DNA of 32,000 bases from Nostoc punctiforme PCC 73102 (GCF_000020025.1 NC_010630.1:30001-62000), one strand, 5' to 3'; numbered from the stretch's first letter, positions 1-22,260 are shown. Notes: generated by a model not told the origin, from the letters alone. A program made the numbers and translations.

Positions 1-1
1 T

Positions 2-1183
2 AAGTTTAGCCAACACTTTCAGAGTGTATCAACACGAGAGGTTTTAGGCGAATATACTTTACAAAAACGCTTGCTACTTTGTTTATATGGTTTAGGAACG
101 AATACTGGATTAAAGCGTTTAAGTGATGAGATTAAAGGCGACAATTATCAAGATTTACTCCATGTTAAGCGTCATTTTATTCAGAAAGAACAATTACGTA
201 ATGCTATTGCCTGTATTGCAAATGCAATTTTTACTGCCAGAATTTCTACTATTTGGGGAGAGGGTACAACCGCCTGTGCTTCTGACTCGAAAAAGTTTGG
301 TGCTTGGGATCAAAACTTAATGACTGAGTGGCACATCCGTTATGGTGGAAGAGGTGTGATGATTTATTGGCACGTTGAGAAGAATTCTGTTTGTATTTAT
401 TCACAGTTAAAAACTTGTTCTTCTTCTGAAGTGGCAGCCATGATTGAAGGATTATTACGCCACTGTACTGAGATGAAAGTGGAGACAAATTATGTGGATA
501 GTCACGGTCAAAATGAAGTGGCTTTTGCTTTCTGTCATTTACTGGGTTTTCAGTTAATGCCGCGTCTTAAACGTATCAATGTTCAGAAATTATACCGTCC
601 TTCAACTGGAAATAATGATGCTTATCCAAACTTGCAACCTATTTTAACTCGCGCTATTAATTGGGATTTAATTCGCCAACAATACGACCAAATGGTGAAG
701 TATGCTACTGCTTTGCGTTTGGGTATGGCAGAAACTGAAGCCATCTTAAAGCGTTTTACTAGGGGTAATTTATTACACCCTACTTATCAAGCCTTGGCGG
801 AATTGGGCAAGGCTGTAAAAACTATATTTTTATGTAAATACCTGCATTCGGTTGAACTGCGACAAGAGATAAATGCTGGACTCAACGTGGTGGAGAACTG
901 GAATAGTGCTAACAGTTTTATTTTTTACGGCAAGGGTGGGGAGATTGCTACTAATCGTTTGTCTGACCAAGAATTAGCTGTGTTATCTCTGCATTTACTC
1001 CAGATATCTTTGGTATATATAAATACGTTGATGATTCAGGAGGTTTTGTCCCAACCACAATGGATGAAGTTGATGAAGTTGGAGGATTTGCGGGCGCTTT
1101 CGCCTTTAATTTGGGGTCACGTTAATCCCTATGGTACTTTTCGTTTGGATCTTAATGTCAGGTTGCCAATTGAGACGGGGTAA
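2..1183 (+). CDS. tnpA: Tn3-family DDE transposase, C-terminal ~390 aa; the 5' end lies left of the window
   Basis: The frame is open from nt 2, with no stop before the listed Met at 71. By eye the protein aligns with the catalytic C-terminal half of the full-length Tn3-family TnpA at 7532-10510. Matching blocks: [15 protein letters not shown] vs WGDGTTSSSDGQRF, and [29 protein letters not shown] vs [29 protein letters not shown]. Confidence 0.9.
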
Positions 1184-1219
1184 ATGTGTCTAAAAATACG
1201 CTTTGTTCGTATGTCTCTT

Positions 1220-1299
1220 AATCTTATAGTCTGAAAGTCATCCACCGCAGTACTTTCAGCCTATCTTGCCCCTGGTGACAGCTTCGCTATATTTACCCC
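1220..1299. repeat. ~80-bp hairpin-bearing element, copy A; probable terminal region of the left-hand Tn3-family element
   Basis: Stem arms are ATAGTCTGAAAGT (1226-1238) and ACTTTCAGCCTAT (1252-1264), pairing 12/13. The reverse complement of the segment starts GGGGTAAATATAGCGAAGC, a GGGG tip typical of Tn3-family ends. A diverged second copy lies at 14339-14417. Confidence 0.5.
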
Positions 1300-1443
1300 T
1301 AAACCCGATTTTAGCAAGATTTTTATTACTATGAATAGTTGACAAAATATTTTACTTATGCGTAATTATTCAAAATTCCTTATTTCTTGTTATTTTTACA
1401 AACATAAATTTTCTTACAACTTTCTTTATCTATTTTTATAAAA

Positions 1444-1563
1444 CCTCATTCAATGAGGATAAATATTGTTTTTTTGAGTGTTGAATATCTATTTATGGCA
1501 TCAAAATAACTGGTTTTGATGCCATAATGCCCATTTTTGGGACATAATTATCTTTTTTGGGAC
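1444..1563. promoter_or_regulatory. AT-rich region with two perfect dyads and a 20-bp-spaced direct repeat; candidate origin or regulatory DNA next to rep
   Basis: CCTCATT-c-AATGAGG lies at 1444-1458. A 14-bp perfect inverted repeat has arms TTATGGCATCAAAA (1493-1506) and TTTTGATGCCATAA (1514-1527). TTTTTGGGAC occurs at 1534-1543 and again at 1554-1563. Confidence 0.3.
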
Positions 1564-1848
1564 TAAAATGCGATAAAAGCTGGAATTAGTCACAACAACG
1601 CACCTATGGTTGCATTGTTAGACATCTTTAACCGCTTTTATGCTCTTGTTTATTCAGAATGGGACAATTTCTTTTTGTTAATTTTTTATAAAAATGGTTC
1701 ATAAATACAAAAATTTAAAGGCTTTATCTTAATGCCGATTGAGTAACATTTTCCGTAATACTACGTTTAGAGAAAAAAAACACCGCAAAAAACTTGCTTT
1801 GTATCTCCGTATATAGTACATTTGTTCTAAATATCCAGGTTCTAATTT

Positions 1849-1872
1849 CCCCACTTAATTGTGGGGTTTTTA
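1849..1872 (+). terminator. Rho-independent terminator-like hairpin with no annotated gene upstream on that strand
   Basis: CCCCAC (1849-1854), loop TTAATT, GTGGGG (1861-1866), then TTTTTA. On the minus strand no T-tract follows the stem, so it is not the rep terminator. Confidence 0.5.
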
Positions 1873-1930
1873 TTGAGTTTTTGCAGTTAAGTCAATCATT
1901 TTTAATCAAAAGCCTGCACGATCGCAAATT

Positions 1931-4120
1931 CTATAGCCTGTAGTCATGTCTGCTTTGTTTTAAACGCTCTGCCATCTCTAGGGCAGAGGGGTTACTTGCC
2001 AGCCATTCCTGCGCTTCCTGTTGTAAAATCAGCGACGGCGATTCTAGCATTAGCAAACGCATGGCCACCTTTTCTAGTTTGATTCGCTCCTGGGGCAGGA
2101 AGGATAAGTTTTCTATAGTGCAGTATAATTTCAGCCAATGACGTGCTTGAGCAGTTGCCTGAAGTTTCAGTCTGATTGCCTGACGGTAATCATCTGGGCT
2201 AAAAGTTTGCTGTTCAAGTGGATCATCCGCTTCTACAGGAATGGGTAGTGAATCTACACATCCTACATTTGAGTGTGTAGTAGTTGGTATAGAAACTGGT
2301 GCAAAAGGTTCGGCTTCTGAGGTATATTCACCCTGTAAAGTGTTCTTAGAGGTGCTATCAACATCACTATGATCAGTGGTTACTACGTCTGAAACACCTA
2401 ACCCAGTAATTGTTTCCTCATTTGATAAGTCTTGCTTATTGTCATCAAACGATTCGCTTCGGAAAGGTTGGTATAGGTTTTGCTTATGATTGGTAAAATT
2501 TGAAATTTCTGAAGAATTAAAACTAGGATCTGAAGAATTAAAACTGGGAGAAAATTCTTGAATTTGAATTTGAATTTGAATTTGAGAAGATTCCTGAATT
2601 TGATTAAGTTCAGCTATAGGCGTTGCTGGCGGCAACGCTTTAGCTGAACTCAAGTACAACACCTTCATATATGGGGGGAGTGTGTAAATTTTTGCTGTTT
2701 GCTCCTGTATCCCTTGTTTGGTCTGAGTTTCAGACTGCGATTCTTCTAACCACGGGTCTGGTATTTGGGGATATTTTTCAGGATATAAAATCGCTGTGTT
2801 GCTGTCCAGAAGCTCATTTACAGGCTGTTTTGATGCGTTTTTTTGGTGGTCAGGATGCCATAAGGGTAGGTATATTGCTTTGTGCAGGGTTGTCTGACTT
2901 ACTCCTTTGCCATACTGGGCTTTGGATGCGGCGATAATTGCTAGAGCGCGATCGCTTGTCCGTTCTGGAAATGTTAGAGCTTGTTGTAACTGTGCAACAA
3001 TCGAACGAATCCGCCCTATTGTCTCTTGCTGACGTTGTTCGTTAGGGTGCAGGTTGATGATTTTATTTTCATCTACTCTGCCAAATTGTTCTTTATAACT
3101 GTTTACCCGTTGCGGTGTGCCTGGGTACGGGGTGTAAAATCCTTCACAGCACCTTGCCCATTCTTTGGCTCGTTGTTCGATTTCATGTTGATGGCGACAC
3201 CAGTTTACGTAACCTGGAGATTGGCAGGCTGTGATCACTATATGATCTACTAGTGTCTGTCCGCTTAATTGGCGAAAGACTATGCCGTAACACGCTATAT
3301 CTTTGAGCAGTTCGTTGGTCTGTCCGTTTCCTGTCCATCCTTCAGAGATGCGTTGTTCTAGGTCTTGCTTCCATTGCTCGGCTGCACTGCGCTGACGGTA
3401 GGGAAATTTTATAATTTTTTTGCTGTTGGCTCGGACTAGTGCTTGGGCTAATGCTTCGTAGTCTTGCCCTTTTGCTGACCAGTCGGCGGCATTGAGGAAG
3501 TCTTCGATGTCGTCTGACCACGGTTCTAGGCAATCATCAAGTACATAAGAGCCTGTCTGTAAGGGTAAGCGATGGGCGTTAAAGTTACTGGGGCTGCCTT
3601 TGCTGTACACTTTGCAGTTGGGGAATATTTCTAGTTCTCCTCCTTTGATTTTGAAGCCTGCTGCTTCTAGGGTCTGCTGGATGGCACAGGCTAGAGTGTA
3701 GGAATGTTGTTTTTCTTCTAGGAAATAATATATATGCAGTCCGCCACTATCGCTTGATTGTATGGGTATTGGTCTGCATAAGCCGATTTCTTCTAGGCTG
3801 GCTAGTAGCTGCCGGTATTTTATTTGGCTGTTTGATGGATGTAGCTGGCTGCCTCTGTCTATGTCTATTAGTAGGTAGTTGGTTTGTTTGGTAAACCGCA
3901 GTCCTATTAAGACATCGGGGTTTAAGTATTGTTGCCACAGGTTACGCGGCTGTAAGGGATAGCGGGTTTCTGTTTGCCACTGTGGGCGTTCACCACTTTT
4001 TGGGGTGGGGGCATAGATGAATCCCCAACCGTGATGGAAGTATTCTAGAAACCTTTGCCCTAGTGGATCTAATGGCTCTAGGGTAGGTTGTGCTGCTGTG
4101 TTTACTTTGGCTTTTGCCAT
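1931..4120 (-). CDS. Plasmid replication initiator candidate with an N-terminal primase-polymerase (AEP)-like domain; 729 aa
   Basis: AEP-like motifs are LLIDIDRG (DxD), SGGLHIYYF (sGxH) and AHRLPLQTG. I prefer the ATG at 4120 (MAKAKVNT), which is preceded by GGGGAGAG. The track ORF extends to 4252 with an unlikely leader. The middle of the protein is a low-complexity linker encoded by tandem DNA repeats. Confidence 0.6.
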   Translation of the reverse strand: MAKAKVNTAAQPTLEPLDPLGQRFLEYFHHGWGFIYAPTPKSGERPQWQTETRYPLQPRNLWQQYLNPDVLIGLRFTKQTNYLLIDIDRGSQLHPSNSQIKYRQLLASLEEIGLCRPIPIQSSDSGGLHIYYFLEEKQHSYTLACAIQQTLEAAGFKIKGGELEIFPNCKVYSKGSPSNFNAHRLPLQTGSYVLDDCLEPWSDDIEDFLNAADWSAKGQDYEALAQALVRANSKKIIKFPYRQRSAAEQWKQDLEQRISEGWTGNGQTNELLKDIACYGIVFRQLSGQTLVDHIVITACQSPGYVNWCRHQHEIEQRAKEWARCCEGFYTPYPGTPQRVNSYKEQFGRVDENKIINLHPNEQRQQETIGRIRSIVAQLQQALTFPERTSDRALAIIAASKAQYGKGVSQTTLHKAIYLPLWHPDHQKNASKQPVNELLDSNTAILYPEKYPQIPDPWLEESQSETQTKQGIQEQTAKIYTLPPYMKVLYLSSAKALPPATPIAELNQIQESSQIQIQIQIQEFSPSFNSSDPSFNSSEISNFTNHKQNLYQPFRSESFDDNKQDLSNEETITGLGVSDVVTTDHSDVDSTSKNTLQGEYTSEAEPFAPVSIPTTTHSNVGCVDSLPIPVEADDPLEQQTFSPDDYRQAIRLKLQATAQARHWLKLYCTIENLSFLPQERIKLEKVAMRLLMLESPSLILQQEAQEWLASNPSALEMAERLKQSRHDYRL
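2508..2586. repeat. Tandem repeats inside rep: 21-bp x2 followed by (TTGAAT)x4
   Basis: TCTGAAGAATTAAAACTAGGA (2508-2528) and TCTGAAGAATTAAAACTGGGA (2529-2549), then TTGAAT x4 at 2558-2581. These encode ...QIQIQIQIQEFSPSFNSSDPSFNSSE... in the minus-strand Rep. Confidence 0.85.
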
Positions 4121-4594
4121 TTTTCTCTCCCCGATGATGATGATTGGTTCATCGGAGCTACCCACACTTTTTAGGTTCGGGGTGTATCTTTTGTGGTCTG
4201 GGGTCTTGGCGTAGGGTGTAATCGATAATCTTTTCCTACACCCAACATCCAATACCCTAAGCCCTTCTTGGTTCTTAAACCCTACCCCCTACCCTCTCAT
4301 TTGAAGGTTCATTAGCGGTGTTTATATCAAATGTCACCAACGGCTACAAACAAAAATTTTCCAATTTGCTCAAAAATTAATTTTCTTGTCAAAATGGCTG
4401 TAATCCTTAGCCTGAAGCTCTCATAGTCAATTTTATAAGGTTGATGTCACTTGATTTAAGTTGCACTAATTTTGCCTTTATGACCCAGACATTGCTACAT
4501 TGAAATTGTTTATAAAAAATATTGACGGTTAGTCGTTAACCGCTAAACGTATGTCTGGCGTGTGGGCAGCTAGCCGATTTCTTTTTTTACCTAC

Positions 4595-4625
4595 TTGACG
4601 CAAATTGACCAGCGACTGGTATAAT
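4595..4625 (+). promoter_or_regulatory. Sigma-70-type promoter candidate with an extended -10
   Basis: TTGACG lies at 4595-4600 and TGgTATAAT at 4617-4625, a 19-nt spacer. No ORF lies downstream for >1 kb. Confidence 0.3.
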
Positions 4626-5458
4626 ACCTGGCGCTAGCTTGTGGGTAGTAAAGAAAGCAGAAATCAGCCCTTTGCATTATTTTTTTTAAAAAGAAAAGTG
4701 CAGTTTTTGATTGAAAAAATCCATTATTCACGACGTTATCCTCTTCTACGAGGCATCTAGCCGTCAAATCATCCCTCAATTATTTCTGGCTCAATAGCTT
4801 TTGCCAATACTCCGCTTAAATTCAGAGTTGGGATAAATTGTAGCGGCAGATGCTTTTTTTACTATTTGTCCAAAAAAAAGCATAAAGTATCCCGCCTGTG
4901 TGCTAATATTGGCAACAGACAGATACACGTAGGTTACGAGTGGTGAGTCCTCGTCAGTTTGGAACAATTTGGTGTTTGTGACCGGCAAGTCTTTATCGCA
5001 CCGAAACAGTTCTACAACGACTCACATTTATTCTGACTATCTGAATATGCTGTTTTGGTCGTTACTACCTCCCTTGTAAAGACTAATTGCAGTTTTACGT
5101 GCAGACTTACTCTCGCTAGAGTAGCATGAAAAGCGGCTCGACCGTATAAAAACAGATTTGTCTGTCTGGTCTTGTAGGCTTAAAACATTCAAGCGAACAT
5201 TTAAACAATTACATACAAACAGCGATCGCTCTTTAGCTGGAGTGGTCGCTTTTTTCAATCGCCCTCCAGAAATGTTAAGTAATTTTAATGATATTTCATT
5301 CATCTGTAACCAACCCATTTCTTGTATTTACGTCTTTTGAAGGCATTGAGTTAATTTCGTTTTTATTGACGTGCTGACCAGTCCCTTGGGTCTGTCACTG
5401 GCTCAAAATCATAATCTGGCTTGTTTGGTTGATTTTCCTCCGTCACGTTTGGCGACTA

Positions 5459-5626
5459 TTAGTTTTGTTGCATATATCCCAATTCGGTTAATCGCTCTTT
5501 TAAAAGTTTATTTACGGCCGCGTTAGAACTAATCATTTGGTCTTCTGCGTATTTGTCCAGAGCCTCAACGATTTCATCTAAATATCGAGTTGTCCTATTT
5601 GTTGTCGGTTTTTTCTGGCGGGCCAT
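5459..5626 (-). CDS. 55-aa ribbon-helix-helix (CopG/Arc-like) DNA-binding protein; below the ORF-track size cutoff
   Basis: Hand translation gives MARQKKPTTNRTTRYLDEIVEALDKYAEDQMISSNAAVNKLLKERLTELGYMQQN, running from ATG to TAA over 168 nt. It has a basic N-tail, a short beta-strand and two helices. It is divergent from the parM-like gene across the TGATACCA repeat region. Confidence 0.55.
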   Translation of the reverse strand: MARQKKPTTNRTTRYLDEIVEALDKYAEDQMISSNAAVNKLLKERLTELGYMQQN

Positions 5627-6944: not shown

Positions 6945-7355
6945 ATGCAAGTACGTTTAGCGGCTCAAGTCGCCAGCAAAGTTGAAGGAGTCCGTCTTTC
7001 ACTTAACTATTCCAAACTGAGTGACACTGTAAATCTGCTATTGGATGCAATCAAACATCAATGGCATCTGAATCTGTCATCCTTGCCCCAAACTGGGACA
7101 ATTAACCCCAAAGTCAGGCTAGATGAACGTCATCAAGCCTGGGTGTCTCAATATGCAACCGAGAGGGGAATTAGCGTCACATCTGCCACAAATCTCTTGA
7201 TTAGTGAATATCTAGCAGGCAATACGATGAATGTTTTGCCTCAGATTCAAAAAATTGAAACAGAAAATCTTGCATTAACTCCACAAATATCTCCACAAGA
7301 ACAAACGACCGAAAAACTGAAAGGTCAGCTATTAGTTAGGAGTCTTAAGTTATGA
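6945..7355 (+). CDS. ParR-like adaptor candidate with ribbon-helix-helix-like segments; 136 aa
   Basis: The ATG at 6945 lies 1 nt after the parM stop. The track start at 6873 would overlap parM by 71 nt. KVRLDERHQAWVSQYATERGISVTSATNLLISEYL looks like an RHH fold. Its position directly downstream of parM matches type II par loci. Confidence 0.5.
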   Translation: MQVRLAAQVASKVEGVRLSLNYSKLSDTVNLLLDAIKHQWHLNLSSLPQTGTINPKVRLDERHQAWVSQYATERGISVTSATNLLISEYLAGNTMNVLPQIQKIETENLALTPQISPQEQTTEKLKGQLLVRSLKL

Positions 7356-7467
7356 ATCAGACCCGTGTAGTCTTGGACGAGAAGCACATACCTAAAGCCA
7401 AGGAAATCATTGAGCAAACAGGAATTAATACATATTCACAATTATTTACCATCCTGTTGGTGAACTA
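7352..7467 (+). pseudogene. 5' part (38 codons) of a small gene split by the Tn3-family insertion
   Basis: The ATG at 7352 overlaps the parR-like stop (ATGA). The present-day stop TAG (7466-7468) is created across the target-duplication/IR junction. The ORF continues in frame at 14548 once the transposon and one AACTA copy are removed. Confidence 0.65.
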
Positions 7468-7505
7468 GGCGTCACCGTGCCAAAACGGGAAAATTGTACG
7501 CTAAG
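7468..7505. repeat. Left terminal inverted repeat of the Tn3-family transposon
   Basis: GGCGTCACCGTGCCAAAACGGGAAAATTGTACGCTAAG. The inner end ACGCTAAG matches the conserved inner end of Tn3/Tn21-type IRs as I recall them. Confidence 0.9.
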
Positions 7506-7531
7506 GCTGAAACTTGTATTAGATAAGCATT

Positions 7532-10510
7532 TCAGCGATACTTATTTTCTTTAACCCGCAAAGGACGCAACTGGCCAAAACTGGTCGCCTGCTTCAAATT
7601 CCACACATAATCGCCAGTGAGATTGATATGCTCCCAACCCAACGGTGACAAATGTTGCAAATGTTCTTCAGGAATATCCATCCCCTGTTCCTGCAAATAA
7701 TCTACAGCTTTTTCTAAGTACACCGTATTCCACAGAACAATAGCAGCAATCACCAAATTCAAGCCACTAGCCCGATAAAACTGGTCTTCATAAGAGCGAT
7801 CGCGCAATTCCCCCAGCCGATTAAAAAACACTGCTCTTTTCAAGGTATGTTTCGCCTCACCTTTATTAAGTCCCGCCGTCGCTCGTCGCCGCAGTTCTGG
7901 ACTCTGCAACCATTCCAGGGTAAATAAAGTCCGCTCAATCCTCCCCAACTCCCGCAAAGCCAAAGCTAAACGATTCTGCCGAGGATAAGAAGCTAATTTC
8001 CTCAACATCAAAGAAGCAGTCACCGTCCCCGTGCGAATTGAACTAGCAAGGCGAAGAATCTCATCCCAAGACTCTTGAATCAATTTCACATTAATCTTGT
8101 CACCTACCAGAGGTGCTAAAACCGAATCAGGGGAACTAGGTTCAAAAGTATATAATTTCTTATCAGGTAAATCTCGCATTCGGGGTGCAAATCTAAACCC
8201 TAATAAATGGCACATTGCAAACACATGCTCGGTATAACCGCTTGTATCTGTATAATGCTCCTGAATCTGTAAATCACTCTCGTGATACAACAAACCATCT
8301 AAAACGTGAGTTGCATCCCTAATCGTGGCGTTAATTACCTTAACGTGAAATGGAGCATACTGGTCGGAAATATGCGTGTAAAAAATCACGCTTCTATCCT
8401 TACCGTACTTGGCATTGATCTCTTCATTAAAACTGCGATGTCCACCTGCTTTAAACCGTTGGCCATCAGAAGAAGATGTTGTCCCATCACCCCAATAAGC
8501 AGCAAATGGGATCTGTGCATGAAAATTCACTACCTCAGCTAAAGCCTTGGAATAAGTTTCATCTCGAATATACCAATCCGCCACCCAAGCTAAACGCTCA
8601 AAAGACATTCCTTGAGTTGCGTCAGCCATCCGCGTTAAACCTAAATTAATACCATCAGCAAGCAAGGCACTTAACAAAACAACTTTATCTGAAACTTGTT
8701 CTCCGGAATGTAAATGCGTAAAATGTTTAGTAAATTGTGTCCAAGAATCAACTTCTACCAACAAATCAGTCAACTTAATTCTTGGCAACAAACTATGAAC
8801 TTTTCTGCTAAATTCATCAACCTCCTTGGGGACAGCATTGGTGAGAGGAGTGATAATTAACAACTCGTTTTCTATCCTGACATCTACCAACTTATTCTCT
8901 ACAATCATTGAAGAAACAAGCGCTAATTGTTCAGACAATTCGATTGAGCGTTGTTCAATATAGGTAGTAAAATCCGTTGTTACTGCCACAGGTATAGTGT
9001 TAGAAGAACGCATTGACTGCCATGAGCTATCTGGTAATAAATAATCCTCAAAATCTTGGAACTGCTTCGAGCCTGCTACCCAAATATCCCCAGAACGCAA
9101 ACCACTACGTAACTCAGCTAAAGCACACATCTCATAGTAGTGACGGTCAATAGTATCGCCCTTAATTACGTGTTTTGACCAACGAGGCTTAACGAAACTA
9201 GTGTCCGCAGATTCCGGCACTTTTCGACCACCTGATATATTTAATTCTTTAATAATCTCTAAAGCCTTTATTACTGGTAAACTGGCAGAAGTAGCTTTAA
9301 ATTCAAAGGCTGACAACAATTTAGGCGTATACCGTCGTAATTGTGAATAACGGTTATCAAGCAGTTCAAGATAATCAAAATCTACGGGTCTGGCTAGCTT
9401 TTCCGCTTCGGCAACACTACTAATAAATTTCTCCCAATCCAACACAGATTCAATCGCTTGATAGGCATCATTGGACTCATCTCTAGCTGCAATTAATGCC
9501 TTGCCCACTTGAGCATACAATCGGACTTTTTCATTAATCGCTTTGCCATCGCGTTGAAACTTATCGCCGTGCTGATGCTCACTTTTATTAAATAATTTAC
9601 CCATCATTTTATCATGCATTCCAATCGCATAATCGACCAATGAAGCACTCCATTCAATCAGAAAAGCAACTAAAATAGCATAACGTCTCGATTCATCCAA
9701 CCTAGATAGGTGAGCAGGTGTAGACTTTGCACCAGTTCTAGTAAATTGCAGCAGACGATTTTGGTGTACTCGTTTCAAGCATCCAGAGTCGAGGTTGAGA
9801 TGGCGAATAAACTCCAGTCGTTCCACCACTTTTAAAAAGTTTCTTGGATTAGCCTGACCTGGTGGTTGACGTAGCCAAATTAAATCAGTCAGTTTTTTAT
9901 CAGGCTCTACAACTAATAACTTATCTAGCGCCGTCTTTTGTAATGTTGTCAAACTTTTAGTCAACTCAAGACATACTAATTTTTGAGCGCGATGCCTGAC
10001 CTCCCAGGCTAAACGTTCTACTGTAGAAATAGCTGGAATAATAATTTGGCGCAAGCGCATCTCATCAATCAACACTCCCACAAGCGCCATCCCTTTATCT
10101 GACGATATTGCAAAAGGTAATAACCATTTTGAGAATTGCTTGTATGTAGATGTATTAAAAGTATGAAATCCGAAATTGTTTTGAATTTCTGCCAGATGTT
10201 CGCGTCGAGTTGTATCCCTTTGGGAATATTCGGTGATGATTGTTGGGTCAAGTTTTAATTGAGATGCAATATAAAACAGTACAGATTCCGGTACTATTTC
10301 TCCTAAACTCCAAACACGACCGGGGAAGCGTAGGTAAGATAACTGTACGGCGAAACCAAGACGATTGTGCGGTCTACGACGCTCTTTGATAACTTTGAGT
10401 TCGTCATTACTAAAAGTATAGTAGCGAGCTATATCTCTTGTCGTGATAGAATTGGGAATTTCAGTAAATTGAAGTCGTTGTGTCGGAGATAAAAGTTCGC
10501 GCGTTGCCAA
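7532..10510 (-). CDS. tnpA: Tn3-family transposase, full length (992 aa)
   Basis: The N-terminus (LSPTQRLQFTEIP...ARYYTFSNDELKVIKERRRPHNRLGFAVQLSYLRFPGR) and the C-terminal DDE region are typical of Tn3 TnpA. The start is TTG at 10510. The stop lies 26 nt from the inner end of the IR. Confidence 0.95.
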   Translation of the reverse strand: MATRELLSPTQRLQFTEIPNSITTRDIARYYTFSNDELKVIKERRRPHNRLGFAVQLSYLRFPGRVWSLGEIVPESVLFYIASQLKLDPTIITEYSQRDTTRREHLAEIQNNFGFHTFNTSTYKQFSKWLLPFAISSDKGMALVGVLIDEMRLRQIIIPAISTVERLAWEVRHRAQKLVCLELTKSLTTLQKTALDKLLVVEPDKKLTDLIWLRQPPGQANPRNFLKVVERLEFIRHLNLDSGCLKRVHQNRLLQFTRTGAKSTPAHLSRLDESRRYAILVAFLIEWSASLVDYAIGMHDKMMGKLFNKSEHQHGDKFQRDGKAINEKVRLYAQVGKALIAARDESNDAYQAIESVLDWEKFISSVAEAEKLARPVDFDYLELLDNRYSQLRRYTPKLLSAFEFKATSASLPVIKALEIIKELNISGGRKVPESADTSFVKPRWSKHVIKGDTIDRHYYEMCALAELRSGLRSGDIWVAGSKQFQDFEDYLLPDSSWQSMRSSNTIPVAVTTDFTTYIEQRSIELSEQLALVSSMIVENKLVDVRIENELLIITPLTNAVPKEVDEFSRKVHSLLPRIKLTDLLVEVDSWTQFTKHFTHLHSGEQVSDKVVLLSALLADGINLGLTRMADATQGMSFERLAWVADWYIRDETYSKALAEVVNFHAQIPFAAYWGDGTTSSSDGQRFKAGGHRSFNEEINAKYGKDRSVIFYTHISDQYAPFHVKVINATIRDATHVLDGLLYHESDLQIQEHYTDTSGYTEHVFAMCHLLGFRFAPRMRDLPDKKLYTFEPSSPDSVLAPLVGDKINVKLIQESWDEILRLASSIRTGTVTASLMLRKLASYPRQNRLALALRELGRIERTLFTLEWLQSPELRRRATAGLNKGEAKHTLKRAVFFNRLGELRDRSYEDQFYRASGLNLVIAAIVLWNTVYLEKAVDYLQEQGMDIPEEHLQHLSPLGWEHINLTGDYVWNLKQATSFGQLRPLRVKENKYR

Positions 10511-10533
10511 TTAGATACCTGGATATTCAGTTT

Positions 10534-11004
10534 TTAAGAAGTAGTTTGATTTTGTTTATAATTCGCACCACAGTAAGGGCAGAATTTAAATTTCAATGAC
10601 ATAATTGGTTCATTGCAACTAACACAGCGATTTCGTAAAGCTGTGCCACAAGCAAAGCAATACTTCGACCGTAAATCTGTCCACATTTGGTCAGGGGTAG
10701 TTCCTGGAGTCCAACATTTAGGACAAAATTTTAACGTAGTTATTGTTTCTGGAGAGACTTTCTTCGCTGCCGCATCTAGGTACTCCGGTGGTATTCCCAA
10801 CGCAGCAGCTAGACCGCCTTTAGCCTTTTGATTGAGTCTATTAGTTTGTCCACCCTCAATTTTGCGGATGGTCTGGATATGTATTCCCGCTTTGAAACTC
10901 AACTCTTTTTGGGTTAAAGAAAGCTGACCTCGCAATCTCTGGACGTAATTAGCAAGCCCTTCTTCTCCCAATGGTCGCGTTGAATGTTCTGTTACAATCA
11001 TCAA
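10534..11004 (-). CDS. XRE-type HTH protein with a C-terminal double zinc ribbon, co-oriented with and 23 nt upstream of tnpA
   Basis: The HTH is LSLTQKELSFKAGIHIQTIRKIEGGQT. Four CxxC pairs are present: CPKC, CFAC, CVSC and CPYC. The ATG at 11001 is the likely start; the track begins at TTG 11004. Confidence 0.75.
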   Translation of the reverse strand: MMIVTEHSTRPLGEEGLANYVQRLRGQLSLTQKELSFKAGIHIQTIRKIEGGQTNRLNQKAKGGLAAALGIPPEYLDAAAKKVSPETITTLKFCPKCWTPGTTPDQMWTDLRSKYCFACGTALRNRCVSCNEPIMSLKFKFCPYCGANYKQNQTTS

Positions 11005-11088
11005 AATATATCTGAAAATATATTTGTTAATGATAAGTTAATATCTAAACCTTTATTCAAATAAATTGTAAAAAGCTTTTCTAAAGTA
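11004..11088. promoter_or_regulatory. Divergent promoter region; candidate resolution (res/IRS-like) site
   Basis: AAATATAT (11004-11011), a 6-nt spacer CTGAAA, then ATATATTT (11018-11025). This is the geometry of a tyrosine-recombinase core site. GTTAAT is directly repeated just downstream. Confidence 0.3.
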
Positions 11089-11982
11089 ATGATGACTTTA
11101 GCAGCTTTAGCCACCAAGTTTTTAGAACGTCCAGGACTAGCCAAAAGTACTCTGCGTTCATATCAGTCTACGATTATCCCCTTGCTCAAGGAGTACGGTC
11201 GATGGTCAATAGAAATCATCGACAGACAAGTTTTGATGGAATATCTCAATCATTTAACTGATGTTTCCTATACGACCCACCACCGTCATCAAGCTGTAAT
11301 CACGGCTTTGTTCAGTTTTGCTGTTGATATGGAATATCTCAAATCCAATCCGGTTGCGGGTCTCAGAAGACGTAAACCCAGTCGAGAACAAGGAGAACAC
11401 GCTACTGATGAGGCTGTGCGTTACCTTACTCCATACCAATTAAGTATCCTGTATCGTGTCATCAAAAAAGATGTTCGTTTGTCTGCATTGGTGCGTTTGT
11501 TGCATACTAGTGGCGCTAGGATTGCTGAGGTACTAGCTCTAAATTTAGATGAGATAGACCTCAAAGCCCGAAAATTTCAGGTTGTTGGGAAAGGCAACAA
11601 GCAACGGTGGTGTTTTTACAGTGAAGTAGCACTCAATAGTCTAAATCACTACATTGAATATTATAGACATCCTAAGCATCCAGCCCTGTTTACTGCTCAA
11701 CAGCCAAAGACTTTGGAAGTATCCCGGCTTTCTTACCGCATGGCGCATAAATCCTGGATTAAGCTCATCAGAGATAGTCCTGAACTCCAAGAAATTCGTA
11801 TTCATGACCTACGGCACACTTTTGCTACAGAGCGAGTGGGATTAATGGGAATTGAAGAACTCAGGGCGCTCATGGGACATGAAAGCATTCAGACAACATT
11901 ACGGTATCAAAAAGTAACGTCGCAACGTGCAGAAATTGTGGCACAATTGGCGTTGAAAAACCTACCAAATTTTTCTGAATAA
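11089..11982 (+). CDS. Tyrosine site-specific recombinase (XerC/D- or TnpI-like), candidate cointegrate resolvase
   Basis: Catalytic signature: SGARIAEVLAL (Arg), IHDLRHTFAT (HxxR) and LMGHESIQTTLRYQ (His...Tyr). An N-terminal SAM-like core-binding domain is present. Confidence 0.9.
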   Translation: MMTLAALATKFLERPGLAKSTLRSYQSTIIPLLKEYGRWSIEIIDRQVLMEYLNHLTDVSYTTHHRHQAVITALFSFAVDMEYLKSNPVAGLRRRKPSREQGEHATDEAVRYLTPYQLSILYRVIKKDVRLSALVRLLHTSGARIAEVLALNLDEIDLKARKFQVVGKGNKQRWCFYSEVALNSLNHYIEYYRHPKHPALFTAQQPKTLEVSRLSYRMAHKSWIKLIRDSPELQEIRIHDLRHTFATERVGLMGIEELRALMGHESIQTTLRYQKVTSQRAEIVAQLALKNLPNFSE

Positions 11983-12172
11983 TTTCAGTATTTAACTGAC
12001 CAAGTGTGATAATAAAACAATACTTTTGCCAAAACATACTATGCTTGGTGCAGGGAATACATACTACTCTGCACCAACAAAATAAGGGTAATCAACCACT
12101 CAGGTAAAACATCAGCCATCGCGCTGAAAAACAATACAACAAGATTATCCATCAAGTGACAAAAAGGGAATT

Positions 12173-12322
12173 ATGTATTTAAACGAGAAAACAGGTCAAC
12201 CCTGCACAATAATTGAACACACCACAGCAAACGCACCTTATTGCTTAGTTAAGTATGCCGATGGTGTGCGTAAAACTGAGCATTTCGCGGATTTGAAGAG
12301 AATTAGGGAAGTTGCAAAATAG
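12173..12322 (+). CDS. Hypothetical 49-aa protein (transposon cargo); below the ORF-track cutoff
   Basis: The ATG is preceded by AAGGGA. Translation: MYLNEKTGQPCTIIEHTTANAPYCLVKYADGVRKTEHFADLKRIREVAK. The stop lies 9 nt before the next ORF. Confidence 0.4.
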   Translation: MYLNEKTGQPCTIIEHTTANAPYCLVKYADGVRKTEHFADLKRIREVAK

Positions 12323-12331
12323 GAATTAATT

Positions 12332-12553
12332 ATGAGCAACCCTGACAATCATCCTGTTTTTGAAATTACCGTTACCGAAGAAGATGGAACTTTTTACGAG
12401 TCGTTTATTGCGTATGTTGATGGAGATTTATTTCGATGCTTGAAAATTTTAGATTATCCCGAAGACTGGGAAATTGATACAGAAGAACTATCAAAAGATA
12501 CGCCGGAAGTGAAGTGGTATTTATGCGAATCTCAAATGATTGAAATCGATTGA
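12332..12553 (+). CDS. Hypothetical strongly acidic 73-aa protein (cargo)
   Basis: Hand count gives 20 Asp+Glu against 4 Lys+Arg. It is tightly packed with neighbouring same-strand ORFs. Confidence 0.55.
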   Translation: MSNPDNHPVFEITVTEEDGTFYESFIAYVDGDLFRCLKILDYPEDWEIDTEELSKDTPEVKWYLCESQMIEID

Positions 12554-12571
12554 TAAACACTATAGCCTGCT

Positions 12572-12937
12572 ATGCTAGCCAAGACTATGGATATGAACTG
12601 GAGAATTTCAATAGGCACACAGCCAAAATATAATACAAGCCAAATGCTATCGAATCATTTTGATAGTTTATTAGCAGATGCCAGATTTAATTTTACCATG
12701 CCTAAATACTATTTTAGGGAAAAGTGTATTGGAATTGTACGGTATTGTGAATGTATTGAATGTACCGCTTTTGATTGCTACGAATGCCAAAAGAGAATAC
12801 CAAAAGGTCAAGAAAATATTATTTACTGGTCGGATGATAACCCACACTACTATTGCCAAGATTGCTTGCCAAAACAATTAGAAGCGATTCAACAAACAGT
12901 AGATTACGGGTTAAATGAAACACACGATAGTTTTTAA
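12572..12937 (+). CDS. Hypothetical Cys-rich (zinc-finger-like) 121-aa protein (cargo)
   Basis: CECIECTAFDCYECQ...YYCQDCLP supplies several CxxC-type pairs. Confidence 0.55.
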   Translation: MLAKTMDMNWRISIGTQPKYNTSQMLSNHFDSLLADARFNFTMPKYYFREKCIGIVRYCECIECTAFDCYECQKRIPKGQENIIYWSDDNPHYYCQDCLPKQLEAIQQTVDYGLNETHDSF

Positions 12938-12942
12938 AATAT

Positions 12943-13146
12943 ATGGGGAAAAGAAAATTAAAGCCGGGCGATCGCGTAATCTTTGAATCGCACGATGAAC
13001 ATTGCTTGCCATTTCAGCAAGTTGGCATCGTAAAACGCTATATTTATCCACACTTTCACCCAGATGGATATATTGAAATTGTGGATGAAGCCGGCGATAC
13101 AATTCTTTACGGCGAAGCAGTCAAAGGGACTCAGAAGGCGAAATGA
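12943..13146 (+). CDS. Hypothetical 67-aa protein (cargo)
   Basis: The ORF starts 5 nt after the previous stop on the same strand. I recognised no family. Confidence 0.5.
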   Translation: MGKRKLKPGDRVIFESHDEHCLPFQQVGIVKRYIYPHFHPDGYIEIVDEAGDTILYGEAVKGTQKAK

Positions 13147-13203
13147 CGAAATGGATATTTTTAAATTTTGTATAATCATCTCATTAAAGCATGGATTTAT
13201 ACA

Positions 13204-13533
13204 ATGAAAATTACTGAAATTTACGTGAGGAATAATTGTTTAGTATTTTGCACCGATGATGGATGTAAATCAATTTATCATTTATCAAATATTGTTGTAG
13301 ATACAAGCTTATCAATAGATTCGCTCTCTCCCGAAAACCTACCAGAATCAAGAGTAGAAACAATTATTGAAGCTGAAGGCGAGCAAATAGCAATGATTGA
13401 AATCAAAGGCCTAATTGGTAGATTAGAAAATGCAGAAAATTGCCTTGAGGCTAATTCTAATGAAGCTTATCACAGCTGCTCTTATTGCTTTTCCGGGCAA
13501 ATAAACAATATTTTAAATCAACTTTTTAGTTAA
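13204..13533 (+). CDS. Hypothetical 109-aa protein (cargo)
   Basis: I prefer the ATG at 13204 (MKITEIY) over the TTG at 13168. No family recognised. Confidence 0.5.
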   Translation: MKITEIYVRNNCLVFCTDDGCKSIYHLSNIVVDTSLSIDSLSPENLPESRVETIIEAEGEQIAMIEIKGLIGRLENAENCLEANSNEAYHSCSYCFSGQINNILNQLFS

Positions 13534-13671
13534 CCTAGTGAGTTGAAAAGGGAAGGGGAAAGAAACCTTTAACCTTTTCCCAAAACTCAATTCCGAGTTA
13601 AAAATGCAAAACCCGAACAGTATTGCGATCCAACGGATGACCTAGATAATGAATGGGGATCTAGAAAGAGA

Positions 13672-13938
13672 ATGACTAGCAAAAAATTTTATGACCCTTT
13701 GGAGCATTCACCACAAGAAAATCAACAATACTTGATTACTTTGATAGAAGAAATGCGATCGCTTTTGATTGAAATGCAGCACGGAGAAGAAGATTTTCTA
13801 CAAGTTTCAAAAGATACTAGAGCAATGCTGTTGGCTGCTGTGTCTGAAGCAGGAAGGTTATTAAAGCCGGCTCAAGAGTACAGCGTAGAAGCTCAAGCTG
13901 TAGTTGATTATGGCTTTCAACCAGAGCATCTACTGTAA
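13672..13938 (+). CDS. Hypothetical acidic helical 88-aa protein (cargo)
   Basis: Same-strand ORF containing a HIP1 site (13755-13762). No family recognised. Confidence 0.5.
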   Translation: MTSKKFYDPLEHSPQENQQYLITLIEEMRSLLIEMQHGEEDFLQVSKDTRAMLLAAVSEAGRLLKPAQEYSVEAQAVVDYGFQPEHLL

Positions 13939-13981
13939 GGCGTTAAGTCTAAATCTCATAGCAAGGGAATAAAAATAAAAA

Positions 13982-14353
13982 ATGAATATCAAGAGTGAAA
14001 ATTATGCTGATTTTCAAACTTGGTCAAAGCAAGTTGCATCTTGGCAATGTATTCCTCCGATAGTTTCTATTGACATTGAGCGAGAACGTAGTTGCGTGTG
14101 GTTTAATGTAGGTGGCGAAAATCGTCCTCTTGTTAGGTACGCAATTTTTTCCAATATGGGTGGTTGGCAAAGTGGTCATGAGGCTAATGCTGCTGCTAAT
14201 CCATCGGCTTCTTCATTAGGAGAAGCCAAATATTTATACAACCAACTTATTACTGGCAAGATGAATAATGAAGTCAAGTCAATTTTGACTATTGTTGCAA
14301 TTGCTAAGTCTAAAAATACTAATATTAGTATTTCTGAGAATCTTATAGCCTGA
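13982..14353 (+). CDS. Hypothetical 123-aa protein (cargo)
   Basis: Last cargo ORF. Its stop codon lies inside the left arm of hairpin element copy B. Confidence 0.5.
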   Translation: MNIKSENYADFQTWSKQVASWQCIPPIVSIDIERERSCVWFNVGGENRPLVRYAIFSNMGGWQSGHEANAAANPSASSLGEAKYLYNQLITGKMNNEVKSILTIVAIAKSKNTNISISENLIA

Positions 14354-14417
14354 AAGTCATTCATAGCAATACTTTCAGGCTATCTTTCCTCTCTGAAAGC
14401 TTCGCTGTCTCTACGCC
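14339..14417. repeat. ~80-bp hairpin-bearing element, copy B, inside the transposon
   Basis: A perfect 13-bp stem has arms ATAGCCTGAAAGT (14345-14357) and ACTTTCAGGCTAT (14371-14383). By hand alignment it is roughly three-quarters identical to copy A at 1220-1299. The reverse complement starts GGCGTAGAGACAGCGAAGC. Confidence 0.5.
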
Positions 14418-14504
14418 AAAGTACACCTATAGGAGGCTCAATCTTACTTACGGGTGTTATTGAAAAATGGGTGGCTAAGATGCTTATGGGGGAAGGCTTT
14501 TAGC

Positions 14505-14542
14505 CTTAGCGTACAATTTTCCCGTTTTGGCACGGTGATGCC
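14505..14542. repeat. Right terminal inverted repeat of the Tn3-family transposon
   Basis: The reverse complement is GGCATCACCGTGCCAAAACGGGAAAATTGTACGCTAAG, with one mismatch to the left IR. Confidence 0.9.
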
Positions 14543-14547
14543 AACTA

Positions 14548-14593
14548 CGGTGACATTCTTGTTCGTTCTTTAAAAGGTGGGAGTGAAAACTAA
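14548..14593 (+). pseudogene. 3' part (15 codons plus stop) of the gene split by the transposon
   Basis: It reads (Y)GDILVRSLKGGSEN-stop in frame with 7352-7467. Its TAA overlaps the ATG of the next gene (TAATG). Confidence 0.65.
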
Positions 14594-14859
14594 TGCAAAA
14601 TCTCACTCGCATCCATGATTCAACATTACTGACTCAATCGGGCGTTTATCAAATAGATAGAACTTTGTACCGATATCTAGAAAAAACAGGCACAGTTAAA
14701 GCACCACAGTATATCTTCCGTCCTCTTTCTGGAGAGAAGAAGAAGGCAGATATCAAGCTGAATGATAAAGCTTTAACTACTCGTTGTTATGTCGTAGAAG
14801 GCTTATCTACAAGCAGTTCTGTAATCAATCAACAATCACAGCAATTGTCATTATTTTGA
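14593..14859 (+). CDS. Hypothetical 88-aa protein
   Basis: The ATG is preceded by GGTGGGAG and coupled to the interrupted upstream ORF. Confidence 0.5.
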   Translation: MQNLTRIHDSTLLTQSGVYQIDRTLYRYLEKTGTVKAPQYIFRPLSGEKKKADIKLNDKALTTRCYVVEGLSTSSSVINQQSQQLSLF

Positions 14860-14860
14860 A

Positions 14861-15046
14861 GTGAATATGAGTCGGCAATCATTACCCCAATTGGTTGTAC
14901 AAGCCCAACAATTGCTCACACAAATTCCTCAACATCCACAATACCAAGCTTTGCAATTTGATTGTGATGTCAATTTGGGTGATGTAAATCAGTTTTTCAA
15001 TACTTTGCAATCTGAATGTCAAATTAAAGGCGATCGCACCCACTAA
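14861..15046 (+). CDS. Hypothetical ~60-aa protein
   Basis: A GTG at 14861 lies 1 nt after the previous stop. An ATG at 14867 is the alternative start. Confidence 0.4.
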   Translation: MNMSRQSLPQLVVQAQQLLTQIPQHPQYQALQFDCDVNLGDVNQFFNTLQSECQIKGDRTH

Positions 15047-20658: not shown

Positions 20659-21543
20659 ATGACTTATAAATATAAGCTAAAACTATACATTGTTAAGCCG
20701 ATGAAATGGCTCTTAGCAATTGCTGTGACTTTAAGCAGCACCACTCAATATCCAGTACAAGTAATAGCCCAAACAAAACAACCACCAACTACTAAGCAGC
20801 CTGTACAACCAGTTAAGACACCTGCTTCACCTCAACAACGTACCTCGCAACCAGTTTTTGTTTGGCCAAAAACACCTGCTCTAAGTCCTATATCTGGACG
20901 TAGAGTAGGAATGGGTAGTCGGGATAATTGTCCTGCGGTTGCAACTGCACTCACTGCTTTAGTACCATTGCAAGAGGCACAAAATGTTGGCAAACAGAGA
21001 GACGCATCAGTTATAGGGATTGTAGAGGGGCTAACCATCTCTGAAAGACCTACATTTTGGTTTTACGTTCCCTACACACGGGATTTAGCTGACTCAAGTG
21101 CTGAATTTATCTTACAGGACAGTGCAGAAACGAATATTTATGAAAAAGCGATCGCACTACCGTCGCAGCCTGGTGTCATTGGTATTTCTCTTCCTGATAA
21201 TGTTGCATCCTTAGAAGTAGGTAAAACATATCGCTGGTATTTAAAAGTTCGCTGCAACCAGAGAACAGCCAGCGTTCCTATATATGTTGAAGGAGACATT
21301 CAAAGAATCAATTTAGATTCTCGTGTGATGCAGCAATTGCAAACAACAACCGATCCCCAAGAAAAGATTGTTATTTATGCCAAAGAAGGTATTTGGTTCG
21401 ACGCTTTAACTATGCTGGCAAAACTACGCCTTGCTAATTCTAATGATGCATCTGTTAAAAAACATTGGCAAACTTTATTGCAATCTGTCAGTCTGGATAA
21501 TATTGCTACAGATCCTCTAGTGAATTCATCAAATGGCCAGTAA
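20659..21543 (+). CDS. Secreted DUF928-like protein
   Basis: A signal peptide follows the internal Met at 20701 (MKWLLAIAVTLSS...AQ). Blocks ERPTFWFYVPY, GKTYRWYLKV and VEGDIQRI match my memory of the cyanobacterial DUF928 family. Confidence 0.65.
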   Translation: MTYKYKLKLYIVKPMKWLLAIAVTLSSTTQYPVQVIAQTKQPPTTKQPVQPVKTPASPQQRTSQPVFVWPKTPALSPISGRRVGMGSRDNCPAVATALTALVPLQEAQNVGKQRDASVIGIVEGLTISERPTFWFYVPYTRDLADSSAEFILQDSAETNIYEKAIALPSQPGVIGISLPDNVASLEVGKTYRWYLKVRCNQRTASVPIYVEGDIQRINLDSRVMQQLQTTTDPQEKIVIYAKEGIWFDALTMLAKLRLANSNDASVKKHWQTLLQSVSLDNIATDPLVNSSNGQ

Positions 21544-21997: not shown

Positions 21998-22260
21998 ATC
22001 CCAACTACAAATATTTACTCGGTTTTACTTACTTTGGTTCATTCTGTAAGCGATTTACAGATATTTTTGGCAATTTTTATCACACCAGTGAATACCTTCA
22101 TCTTATTCATACCTATAAAAATATAGGAGCCAAGCTTCTTAATGCTTAACTTAATGAAATTAAGAAACCTTGGATTTTAGCAAATAGGGAACAGAGAGAA
22201 TCTTGCAAGGGATCTTTCAAGTTTTACAGTATCAATTTTCAATTTTTGGGAGTATTGTTT

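Follow-up and report, generated by a model that had tools for sequence, protein, structure and literature searches.

A Tn3-family transposon on a Nostoc punctiforme plasmid with a Xer-like recombinase, a TniQ-like partner protein and a candidate resolution site

Three types of resolvase are listed in the literature for the Tn3 family, namely TnpR, TnpI and the pair TnpS+TnpT (PMC7157771). The locus described here raises the question of how a transposon of this family would resolve its cointegrates if its recombination genes correspond to none of them. The element lies in a stretch of 32,000 nucleotides from Nostoc punctiforme PCC 73102 (GCF_000020025.1 NC_010630.1:30001-62000), the whole of which we call the window; positions are counted from its first letter, and strands are given relative to it. 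The segment 7468-14542 is very probably an intact replicative transposon of the Tn3 family, recently inserted in a Nostoc plasmid of the pCC7120gamma/pNe_2 type. It is an otherwise ordinary member of a well-known family, and its resolution cassette, as far as sequence comparison can tell, fits none of the three listed types.

Ends, target duplication and empty sites

From inverted repeat (IR) to inverted repeat the element measures 7075 bp, and the pentamer AACTA stands directly outside both ends, at 7463-7467 on the left and 14543-14547 on the right. The left terminal repeat (IRL; 38 bp, 7468-7505, + strand) reads GGCGTCACCGTGCCAAAACGGGAAAATTGTACGCTAAG, and the reverse complement of the right terminal repeat (IRR; 38 bp, 14505-14542, - strand) differs from it solely by G>A at position 4, a match at 37 of 38 positions. 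Similarity runs on from IRL to 7512, and a repeat search stretched the pair to 45 nt at 96% identity (7468-7512 / 14498-14542). A 33-nt core of the repeat occurs exactly twice in the window, against zero occurrences expected from 100 shuffles; the other short direct and inverted repeats returned by the search look like chance matches. Both the length of 38 bp and the inner end of IRL, ACGCTAAG, are the same in the inverted repeat of Tn4430, and the element has the features by which the Tn3 family is recognized: ~38-bp repeats with the conserved inner ...ACGCTAAG / TAAG motif, a 5-bp duplication and a large (~1000 aa) Tn3-type DDE transposase. Base composition fails to set it apart, its GC fraction being 0.39 against 0.40-0.41 for the backbone.

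The clearest evidence for insertion comes from plasmids that have the flanks and lack the element. When window positions 7000-15000 were compared by megablast with PLSDB, five plasmids matched both flanks only, contiguously over ~920 bp: Nostoc edaphicum pNe_2, pCC7120gamma, and plasmids of N. linckia NIES-25, Nostoc sp. NIES-3756 and TCL26-01. The pNe_2 flanks are 96% identical to those of the window. Two of the five, pNe_2 and pCC7120gamma, were read base by base; both have ...GGTGAACTACGGTGA... at the junction, with a single AACTA, which is exactly the window sequence minus the element and one AACTA. The insertion cuts, at codon 38/39, a 53-aa open reading frame (ORF) downstream of parM (7352-7468 in the window; intact in pNe_2), and the TAG stop codon of the truncated frame arises across the AACTA|G junction; taking out the element and one AACTA restores the 53-aa ORF. 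The original prediction, an earlier note made on this DNA from sequence alone, had described 38-bp repeats with one mismatch and a perfect AACTA duplication, and direct reading of the sequence agrees. It had also suggested a BLASTN search for empty target sites. Such sites exist, each of the two that were read bearing one AACTA, and the related plasmids lack the whole segment; they do not carry the segment stripped of its AACTA copies and inverted repeats.

Relatives across cyanobacteria

An exact match to 26 nt of the IR was sought in 185,579 species genomes, which yielded at least 120 IR-bearing stretches; among the matches listed, nearly all are from Nostocales, with a few from Chamaesiphon and Plectonema. 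When 127 ends were compared, 74 began GGCATCACCGTG and 7 began GGCGTCACCGTG. All related copies have the same terminus, so the differing boundaries that would have counted against the original prediction were not encountered. The last 82 bp of the element, made up of IRR and a sub-terminal conserved region (14461-14504, + strand), are likewise common to all relatives.

The most informative relative is a 4726-bp version on plasmids of Scytonema sp. NIES-4073, which has the same IRs and only three genes, those for the transposase, a helix-turn-helix/zinc-ribbon (HTH-ZnR) protein and a tyrosine recombinase. Its match with the window covers element positions 1-4630 (window 7468-12097), at 95.5%, and resumes for the last 82 bp (14461-14542); because this version does without the intervening DNA, the cargo of the window element can be placed at about 12098-14460. 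The cargo-less copy (L003/L012) is present on three plasmids of this strain, plasmids 2-4, where its flanks are GCCTA / CCTAC, with 4 bp in common at an offset of one base and no clean 5-bp duplication. Either the cargo differs or tnpA is broken in the copies of N. carneum, A. cylindrica, Calothrix and N. commune.

Target duplications were checked for IR pairs that lie inside one 8-kb locus. Four such pairs have perfect 5-bp duplications of their own: L038 (4838 bp, AGACT), L069 (1850 bp, TTATT; one cargo gene and a recombination core, no tnpA), L089 (2377 bp, CCGAA; a deletion derivative) and L102 (387 bp at 5185-5571, AACCT; a miniature element, no tnpA).

That the repeats and the flanking AACTA are a coincidence, or the outer ends of two separate insertions, is a prior possibility to which the unmatched flanks of some related loci lend a little substance. 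We regard it as practically negligible. No IR matches are expected in shuffled sequence, five plasmids are contiguous across both flanks with an exact single-AACTA junction in the two read, and the 4726-bp relative encloses the same three genes between the same ends; the empty sites effectively refute both forms of this explanation.

Transposase and gene layout

The gene tnpA (7532-10510, - strand) encodes a Tn3-family DDE transposase of 992 aa that appears intact by Pfam, by NCBIfam and by alignment with Tn4430. Its Pfam matches are DUF4158 and DDE_Tnp_Tn3, the latter at 6.6e-162 over the full profile (1-389/389), and its score of 1151 bits with NCBIfam model NF033527 exceeds the cutoff of 500. 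The protein is 43% identical end to end to TnpA of Tn4430, the structure of which has been solved (PDB 7QD4/7QD8), and ~52% identical to transposases of the TnAs3/ISPa38 type. The motifs SSSDG (D682), HYTDT (D755) and LNKGE (E885) are present, and we take them to carry the DDE residues.

Upstream of tnpA by 23 bp lies the HTH-ZnR gene (10534-11004, - strand), which encodes 156 aa if read from TTG and 155 aa from the ATG at 11001, the start used by homologues; Pfam recognizes an XRE-type HTH_3 domain and DZR, a double zinc ribbon. The 23-bp gap makes co-transcription with tnpA likely. Across an 84-bp AT-rich spacer, a Xer-like tyrosine recombinase gene (int; 11089-11982, + strand, 297 aa) diverges from it, encoding a putative cointegrate resolvase. 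This protein matches Pfam Phage_integrase at 6e-22 and has the R...K...HxxR...H...Y pattern (R144, K168/171, H239, R242, H264, Y273); its matches to Xer-type NCBIfam models are below their cutoffs.

The hallmarks on which the original prediction based its family assignment (a 5-bp duplication, 38-bp IRs and a ~990-aa TnpA) hold up, as do its gene descriptions, which comprised TnpA, an HTH/zinc-ribbon gene before tnpA, a divergent tyrosine recombinase and seven small unmatched ORFs. Its view that the layout is unusual is right relative to textbook Tn3 or Tn4430 and needs refining in a wider setting, since the layout is standard in a large cyanobacterial clade, that of the at least 120 IR-bearing stretches.

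The description of the element as recent and probably still active is reasonable given its near-perfect ends, intact ORFs and catalytic motifs, and the empty sites in 96%-identical backbones. Two points temper the reading of the segment as an intact, mobile transposon. Five further IR pairs (L012, L034, L057, L090, L095) have unmatched flanks, so some copies are not simple insertions, as is expected after rearrangement or recombination between copies; and transposition activity, cointegrate formation and resolution are properties that we infer from sequence only. A dead relic, formerly mobile and now unable to transpose or resolve, would be in keeping with the broken tnpA of many relatives (L005, L006, L007, L038, L095, L105). 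We think this unlikely for the window copy, in which tnpA, int and the HTH-ZnR gene are full-length with the catalytic motifs in place, the IRs agree at all positions except one and the duplication is perfect, and for which 96%-identical plasmids have the site empty; moreover, an identical TnpA is found on 5 contigs and an identical Int on 30 contigs.

The HTH-ZnR protein as partner of the recombinase

The HTH-ZnR protein belongs to a large family, in which the 120 members among the matches listed all have the same architecture and every named one is cyanobacterial. Eight cysteines are invariant, and the zinc-ribbon half is better conserved than the HTH half. What travels with this protein is the recombinase. 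Recombinases of ~60% identity occur on plasmids of Picosynechococcus PCC 7002, Gloeothece PCC 7424 and Pseudanabaena, and the zinc-ribbon gene is divergently upstream in all of them; there is no Tn3 transposase near the Picosynechococcus and Gloeothece pairs, and for the Pseudanabaena pair tnpA is on the other side, downstream of int and the core.

Sampling of genomic contexts outside the window's own clade extends this picture, with the divergent HTH-ZnR/recombinase pair present in 11 of 12. The operon layout of HTH-ZnR gene (xre) and tnpA seen in the window recurs at L117, L141 and L142, and tnpA stands on the other side, downstream of int, at L129. At L131, L132, L133-135 and L144, which are cyanobacterial chromosomes and metagenome contigs, the pair adjoins genes for TniA (a Mu-transposase), TniB and TniQ, as in TnsA-less Tn7/Tn5053-like elements; the gene order at L132 is tniA-tniB-tniB-tniQ, then the pair, then the core. 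At L128, L130 and L136 the pair has no transposase within 6 kb, and at L145/146 no recombinase was called beside the HTH-ZnR gene.

Judged by these contexts, the HTH-ZnR gene belongs with the recombinase and is not a tnpA accessory. The position before tnpA given in the original prediction is correct; a role as an accessory of tnpA does not survive, the gene being that of a conserved divergent, TniQ-like partner of the recombinase. By the same comparisons, the recombinase, its partner and the core appear to form a portable cassette that also accompanies transposons of the TniA/B/Q type and is found on transposase-less plasmids. Since one cassette serves two unrelated replicative transposases, the recombinase is probably a cointegrate resolvase, and this is the strongest indirect argument that it is one.

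A candidate resolution site

About 65 bp past the int stop codon is an imperfect inverted repeat of the form 11-7-11 (12047-12075, + strand; GGTGCAGGGAA - TACATAC - TACTCTGCACC), followed by a conserved flank (12076-12097, + strand; AACAAAATAAGGGTAATCAACC) with the family motif AAAnTnAG that may be an accessory or extended binding site. The core hardly varies between relatives in which the surrounding DNA has diverged: in A. cylindrica it differs at 1 of 29 positions, between flanks that cannot be aligned. Many loci have a fully symmetric core, GGTGCAGAGTA-N7-TACTCTGCACC, with differing spacers. Where the recombinase is 61-66% identical, the inner arms AGAGTA-N7-TACTCT are kept, 50-110 bp past the stop codon, and many of these loci also carry the flank motif. 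Tn3-type, Tni-type and transposase-less loci alike keep the arms GCAGAGTA...TACTCTGC and vary in the 7-bp spacer. It is by such conserved arms around 7 bp of freely varying spacer that the core of a tyrosine recombinase is recognized. This site is the single strong 11-7-11 site of the element, it is the one near int, and non-autonomous IR-bounded elements retain a core; it is the probable resolution site (res), as far as such conservation can tell.

The miniature elements provide a further observation on this site. Those of ~387 bp (L102 5185-5571, L057 1908-2293) have a full res-like core together with a half core that is broken within its spacer by a degenerate IR, a pattern that a past insertion of a related element into a res core might leave.

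Two other interpretations of the DNA around int were rejected. The core is not an int terminator, there being no T-run after it, a negative terminator scan and a 'loop' that is invariant between relatives. The 84-bp intergenic region does not hold res either, for neither a core nor a half-site is found there, tandem 12-bp repeats being present instead.

Some of the evidence weighs against the proposed res. The res sites of Tn3, Tn4430 and Tn4651 have accessory recombinase-binding sites, which give resolution its selectivity, and no clear accessory recombinase-binding sites were identified at the putative res, where only a short conserved flank was seen. Homology to the cargo-less relatives ends ~20 bp right of the core, and because this break lies outside the spacer, cargo exchange at the crossover point is not demonstrated.

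The core does sit at the boundary of the transposition module and the cargo, and this invites the thought that the recombinase and its site are an integrase/att (attachment site) or integron-like system that captured the small cargo ORFs as cassettes, and not a cointegrate resolvase. The exactness of that position would suit such a history, as would a mosaic cargo whose modules are the size of genes and all lie on the strand of the recombinase. We nevertheless consider it very improbable: there is a single core, with no further full or half sites and no attC-like repeats among the cargo ORFs; cargo-less copies retain the site; the pair holds the resolvase position in TniA/B/Q elements; and homology breaks outside the spacer. 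An integron integrase is not indicated either, the NCBIfam model for IntI scoring 45.9 bits against a cutoff of 265.

Remote homology to TniQ

The structure of the HTH-ZnR protein was modelled with AlphaFold2 from 27 homologues (predicted local distance difference test, pLDDT, 78). The top three PDB matches returned by Foldseek are the TniQ of the type V-K CRISPR-associated transposon (CAST) of Scytonema hofmanni (ShTniQ), over 148-149 columns at E 1.5e-5 to 1.2e-4, and matches to the HTH only, such as 434 Cro, rank below it. A search of PDB with the family profile (hmmsearch) likewise finds ShTniQ (7oxd), at E 0.0037 over 125 residues, with Cro-type matches that cover the HTH only. Profile-profile alignment by hhalign with 28 short cyanobacterial TniQs gives a probability of 91.6% (E 8.3e-7, 138 columns) and aligns all four zinc-ligand pairs and the N-terminal P..E.L..Y/F..R.R motif. 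The protein has, in other words, the fold and architecture of a short TniQ (an N-terminal HTH and two zinc ribbons) and homology to it at the profile level.

Several results temper this assignment. The Foldseek superposition is poor (template modelling score, TM, ~0.4; root-mean-square deviation ~10 Å), the domains matching and their relative orientation not. The hhalign profiles are low in diversity (effective number of sequences, Neff, ~2.2-2.5). With Pfam TniQ (PF06527) the protein scores 13.4 bits, below the cutoff of 27, and of 27 family members 15 match the model at E<=1 only. The partnership with TniB/TnsC and TniA/TnsB that marks TniQ is absent from the window element, which is without tniA or tniB, and canonical TniQ coexists with the HTH-ZnR protein in Tni-type loci. 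Structure modelling and profiles together suggest a remote homologue of short TniQ, one to be called TniQ-like and not a member of the TniQ family.

What this protein may do is suggested in part by the DNA at its start, where two tandem 12-bp direct repeats (11003-11026, + strand; AAAATATATCTG / AAAATATATTTG) abut the start codon as a candidate operator; a similar tandem-repeat architecture, of different sequence, is found at the HTH-ZnR start in distant loci. We considered whether one protein might bind both these leader repeats and the core flank, and rejected the idea; a permutation test gave no significant support for a motif common to the two (p = 0.17), which is a point against the scheme set out below.

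It is quite possible, though we lean somewhat the other way, that the HTH-ZnR protein does no more than repress transcription from the divergent int and xre-tnpA promoters, taking no part in recombination, and that the recombinase works alone, as TnpI does. TnpR of Tn3 acts as a transcriptional repressor. The N-terminal domain here is an HTH of the Cro/434 type, tandem repeats abut the start codon and have counterparts of similar architecture in distant loci, the gene is probably co-transcribed with tnpA, and TnpI of Tn4430 needs no helper (PMC7157771). A mere repressor sits less easily with the higher conservation of the zinc-ribbon half, with the fact that the protein stays with the recombinase where tnpA is absent, on the other side or replaced by TniA/B/Q, and with its full-length relatives, which are TniQ adaptor proteins and not simple repressors.

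A possible mechanism and its implications

If the element behaves according to established Tn3-family biology, TnpA would bind the 38-bp IRs and carry out copy-in transposition, which would duplicate 5 bp of the target and fuse donor and target into a cointegrate. The Xer-like recombinase would then resolve the cointegrate by recombining the two copies of the core at 12047-12075. The TniQ-like partner would most likely bind DNA to regulate the divergent promoter region, serve at res as an accessory factor, or both. Comparison shows that the pair and the core are conserved and that the partner is remotely homologous to TniQ; which site is res, and what the TniQ-like protein does, enter this scheme as suppositions.

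A bolder proposal, which we put forward tentatively and with more doubt than conviction, is that of a tyrosine resolvase with two components, the Xer-like recombinase and the TniQ-derived protein, which would act on a simple 11-7-11 core and be a fourth type of resolution in the Tn3 family. The TniQ-like subunit would recognize the res/recombinase complex, by analogy with TniQ of Tn5053, which senses resolvase-occupied res sites, and the cassette would be exchanged among Tn3-type transposons, TnsA-less Tn7/Tn5053-like transposons and cyanobacterial plasmids. Were this true, the cassette would be a candidate for cointegrate resolution in TnsA-less cyanobacterial Tn7-like elements. A module common to Tn3-type and TnsA-less TniA/B/Q transposons would be direct evidence that resolution cassettes are exchanged between unrelated replicative transposons. 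If a TniQ-like protein has a recombinase as its conserved partner, and not a TnsC/TniB ATPase, the TniQ fold would have a wider range of roles than is now known, and this bears on the link between res-hunting and cointegrate resolution. In more practical terms, the exact empty site, the near-perfect ends and the many relatives, miniatures included, make this element a convenient natural system for the study of Tn3-family mobility on Nostocales plasmids.

Cargo and neighbouring genes

The cargo (12098-14460, + strand) comprises seven small ORFs, all on the recombinase strand, at 12173-12322, 12332-12553, 12572-12937, 12943-13146, 13168-13533, 13672-13938 and 13982-14353 (49, 73, 121, 67, 121, 88 and 123 aa, respectively). 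No credible match to any of them was found in Pfam (even at E<=5), NCBIfam, PHROGs or PADLOC. The cargo as a unit is absent from PLSDB and differs as a mosaic between relatives: L052 has window 12157-13554 at 97%, other subsets are found in L013, L028, L095 and L025, and the last ORF is found by itself on plasmids of Nostoc and Tolypothrix. Between two of the cargo ORFs, at ~13566-13628, is a sequence of ~60 bp with copies of 83-91% identity on many Nostoc plasmids, a small dispersed repeat.

Elsewhere in the window, positions 1-1183 (+ strand) encode the C-terminal ~394 aa of a second Tn3-family transposase (DDE_Tnp_Tn3, 1.9e-135), which runs off the left edge of the window and is distantly related to the TnpA of the element (30% identical); no IR of the ACGCTAAG type was found after its stop codon. 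The plasmid backbone to the right of the element contains, by Pfam, genes for a DUF928 protein (20659-21543, +), a GH18 chitinase-like protein (22246-24618, +) and a TPR-CHAT protein (24817-27441, -), and an ORF of 1491 aa without a Pfam match (27452-31927, -).

Comparison with known systems

No Tn3-family element with a TniQ-like or HTH/zinc-ribbon partner was described in the full-text literature that we searched; the family to which it belongs may already be named in ISfinder or TnCentral, which are outside that search. One named candidate from this species is ISNpu13, the ISfinder Tn3-family entry from Nostoc punctiforme, the TnpA of which is reported to be 43% identical to that of TnXax1 (PMC4337579). 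The window TnpA is just 25% identical to TnXax1 TnpA, and identity with ISNpu13 is rejected on that ground.

Tn4430 of Bacillus thuringiensis resembles the window element in its 38-bp IRs, 5-bp duplication, ~990-aa TnpA and single Xer-like tyrosine recombinase. However, the window recombinase is only 24% identical to TnpI and is divergent from tnpA, whereas TnpI is colinear with it. The internal recombination site (IRS) of Tn4430 is upstream of tnpI, whereas the putative res of the window is downstream of the recombinase gene, and the arms are unrelated (GCAGAGTA in the window, CAACACAAT repeats in the IRS). Tn4430 is also without the TniQ-like HTH/zinc-ribbon gene and the cargo region. Membership in the Tn4430/TnpI subgroup is rejected on the basis of identity, orientation, site position and arms.

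Elements of the Tn4651/TnXax1 type, with TnpS+TnpT, share with the window element a divergent tyrosine recombinase and a second protein of DNA-binding type within a Tn3-family transposon. The resemblance does not extend to sequence: the window Int matches TnpS in the catalytic C-terminal motif only (BLASTP E 0.065, not significant), and the HTH-ZnR protein has no similarity to TnpT (BLASTP E 5.4), which at 332 aa is also much longer than its 156 aa. In Tn4651 the resolution site rst is between tnpS and tnpT (PMC7157771), whereas the window core follows the recombinase gene. The lack of sequence similarity and the absence of a core from the 84-bp intergenic region lead us to reject this subgroup as well.

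Non-autonomous Tn3 derivatives of the TIME/MIC type have their counterparts in L102 and L069, which have the same IRs, 5-bp duplications and no tnpA. These two derivatives differ from that type in retaining a res-like core, and the window element differs from it in being autonomous.

Among TniQ proteins the closest likeness is to ShTniQ, a short TniQ of cyanobacterial Tn7-like, type V-K CAST elements (PDB 7OXD): both proteins are of ~155-175 aa and have an N-terminal HTH with P..E.L..Y/F..R.R and two zinc ribbons. They differ in that identity is ~20%, the Pfam TniQ match is below threshold, and the window element has no TniB/TnsC partner, the conserved partner being a tyrosine recombinase.

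Finally, in Tn5053/Tn402 the order is tniA-tniB-tniQ-tniR-res, and in related cyanobacterial loci tniA/tniB/tniQ are followed by the HTH-ZnR/recombinase pair and the core, the pair being found at the place of tniR/res. The resolvase TniR of Tn5053 is a serine enzyme, and the window element itself uses a Tn3-family TnpA, not TniA/B/Q. Tn5053-type elements and the related cyanobacterial Tni loci are TnsA-less replicative systems that need resolution (PMC9527255, PMC11406308), and a resolvase system, of the serine or the tyrosine type, is usual in TnsA-less Tn7-like transposons (2024 review, PMC11406308). The pair and core that adjoin tni genes (L131, L132, L133-L135, L144) are candidates for a dedicated cointegrate resolvase of TnsA-less Tn7/Tn5053-like elements.

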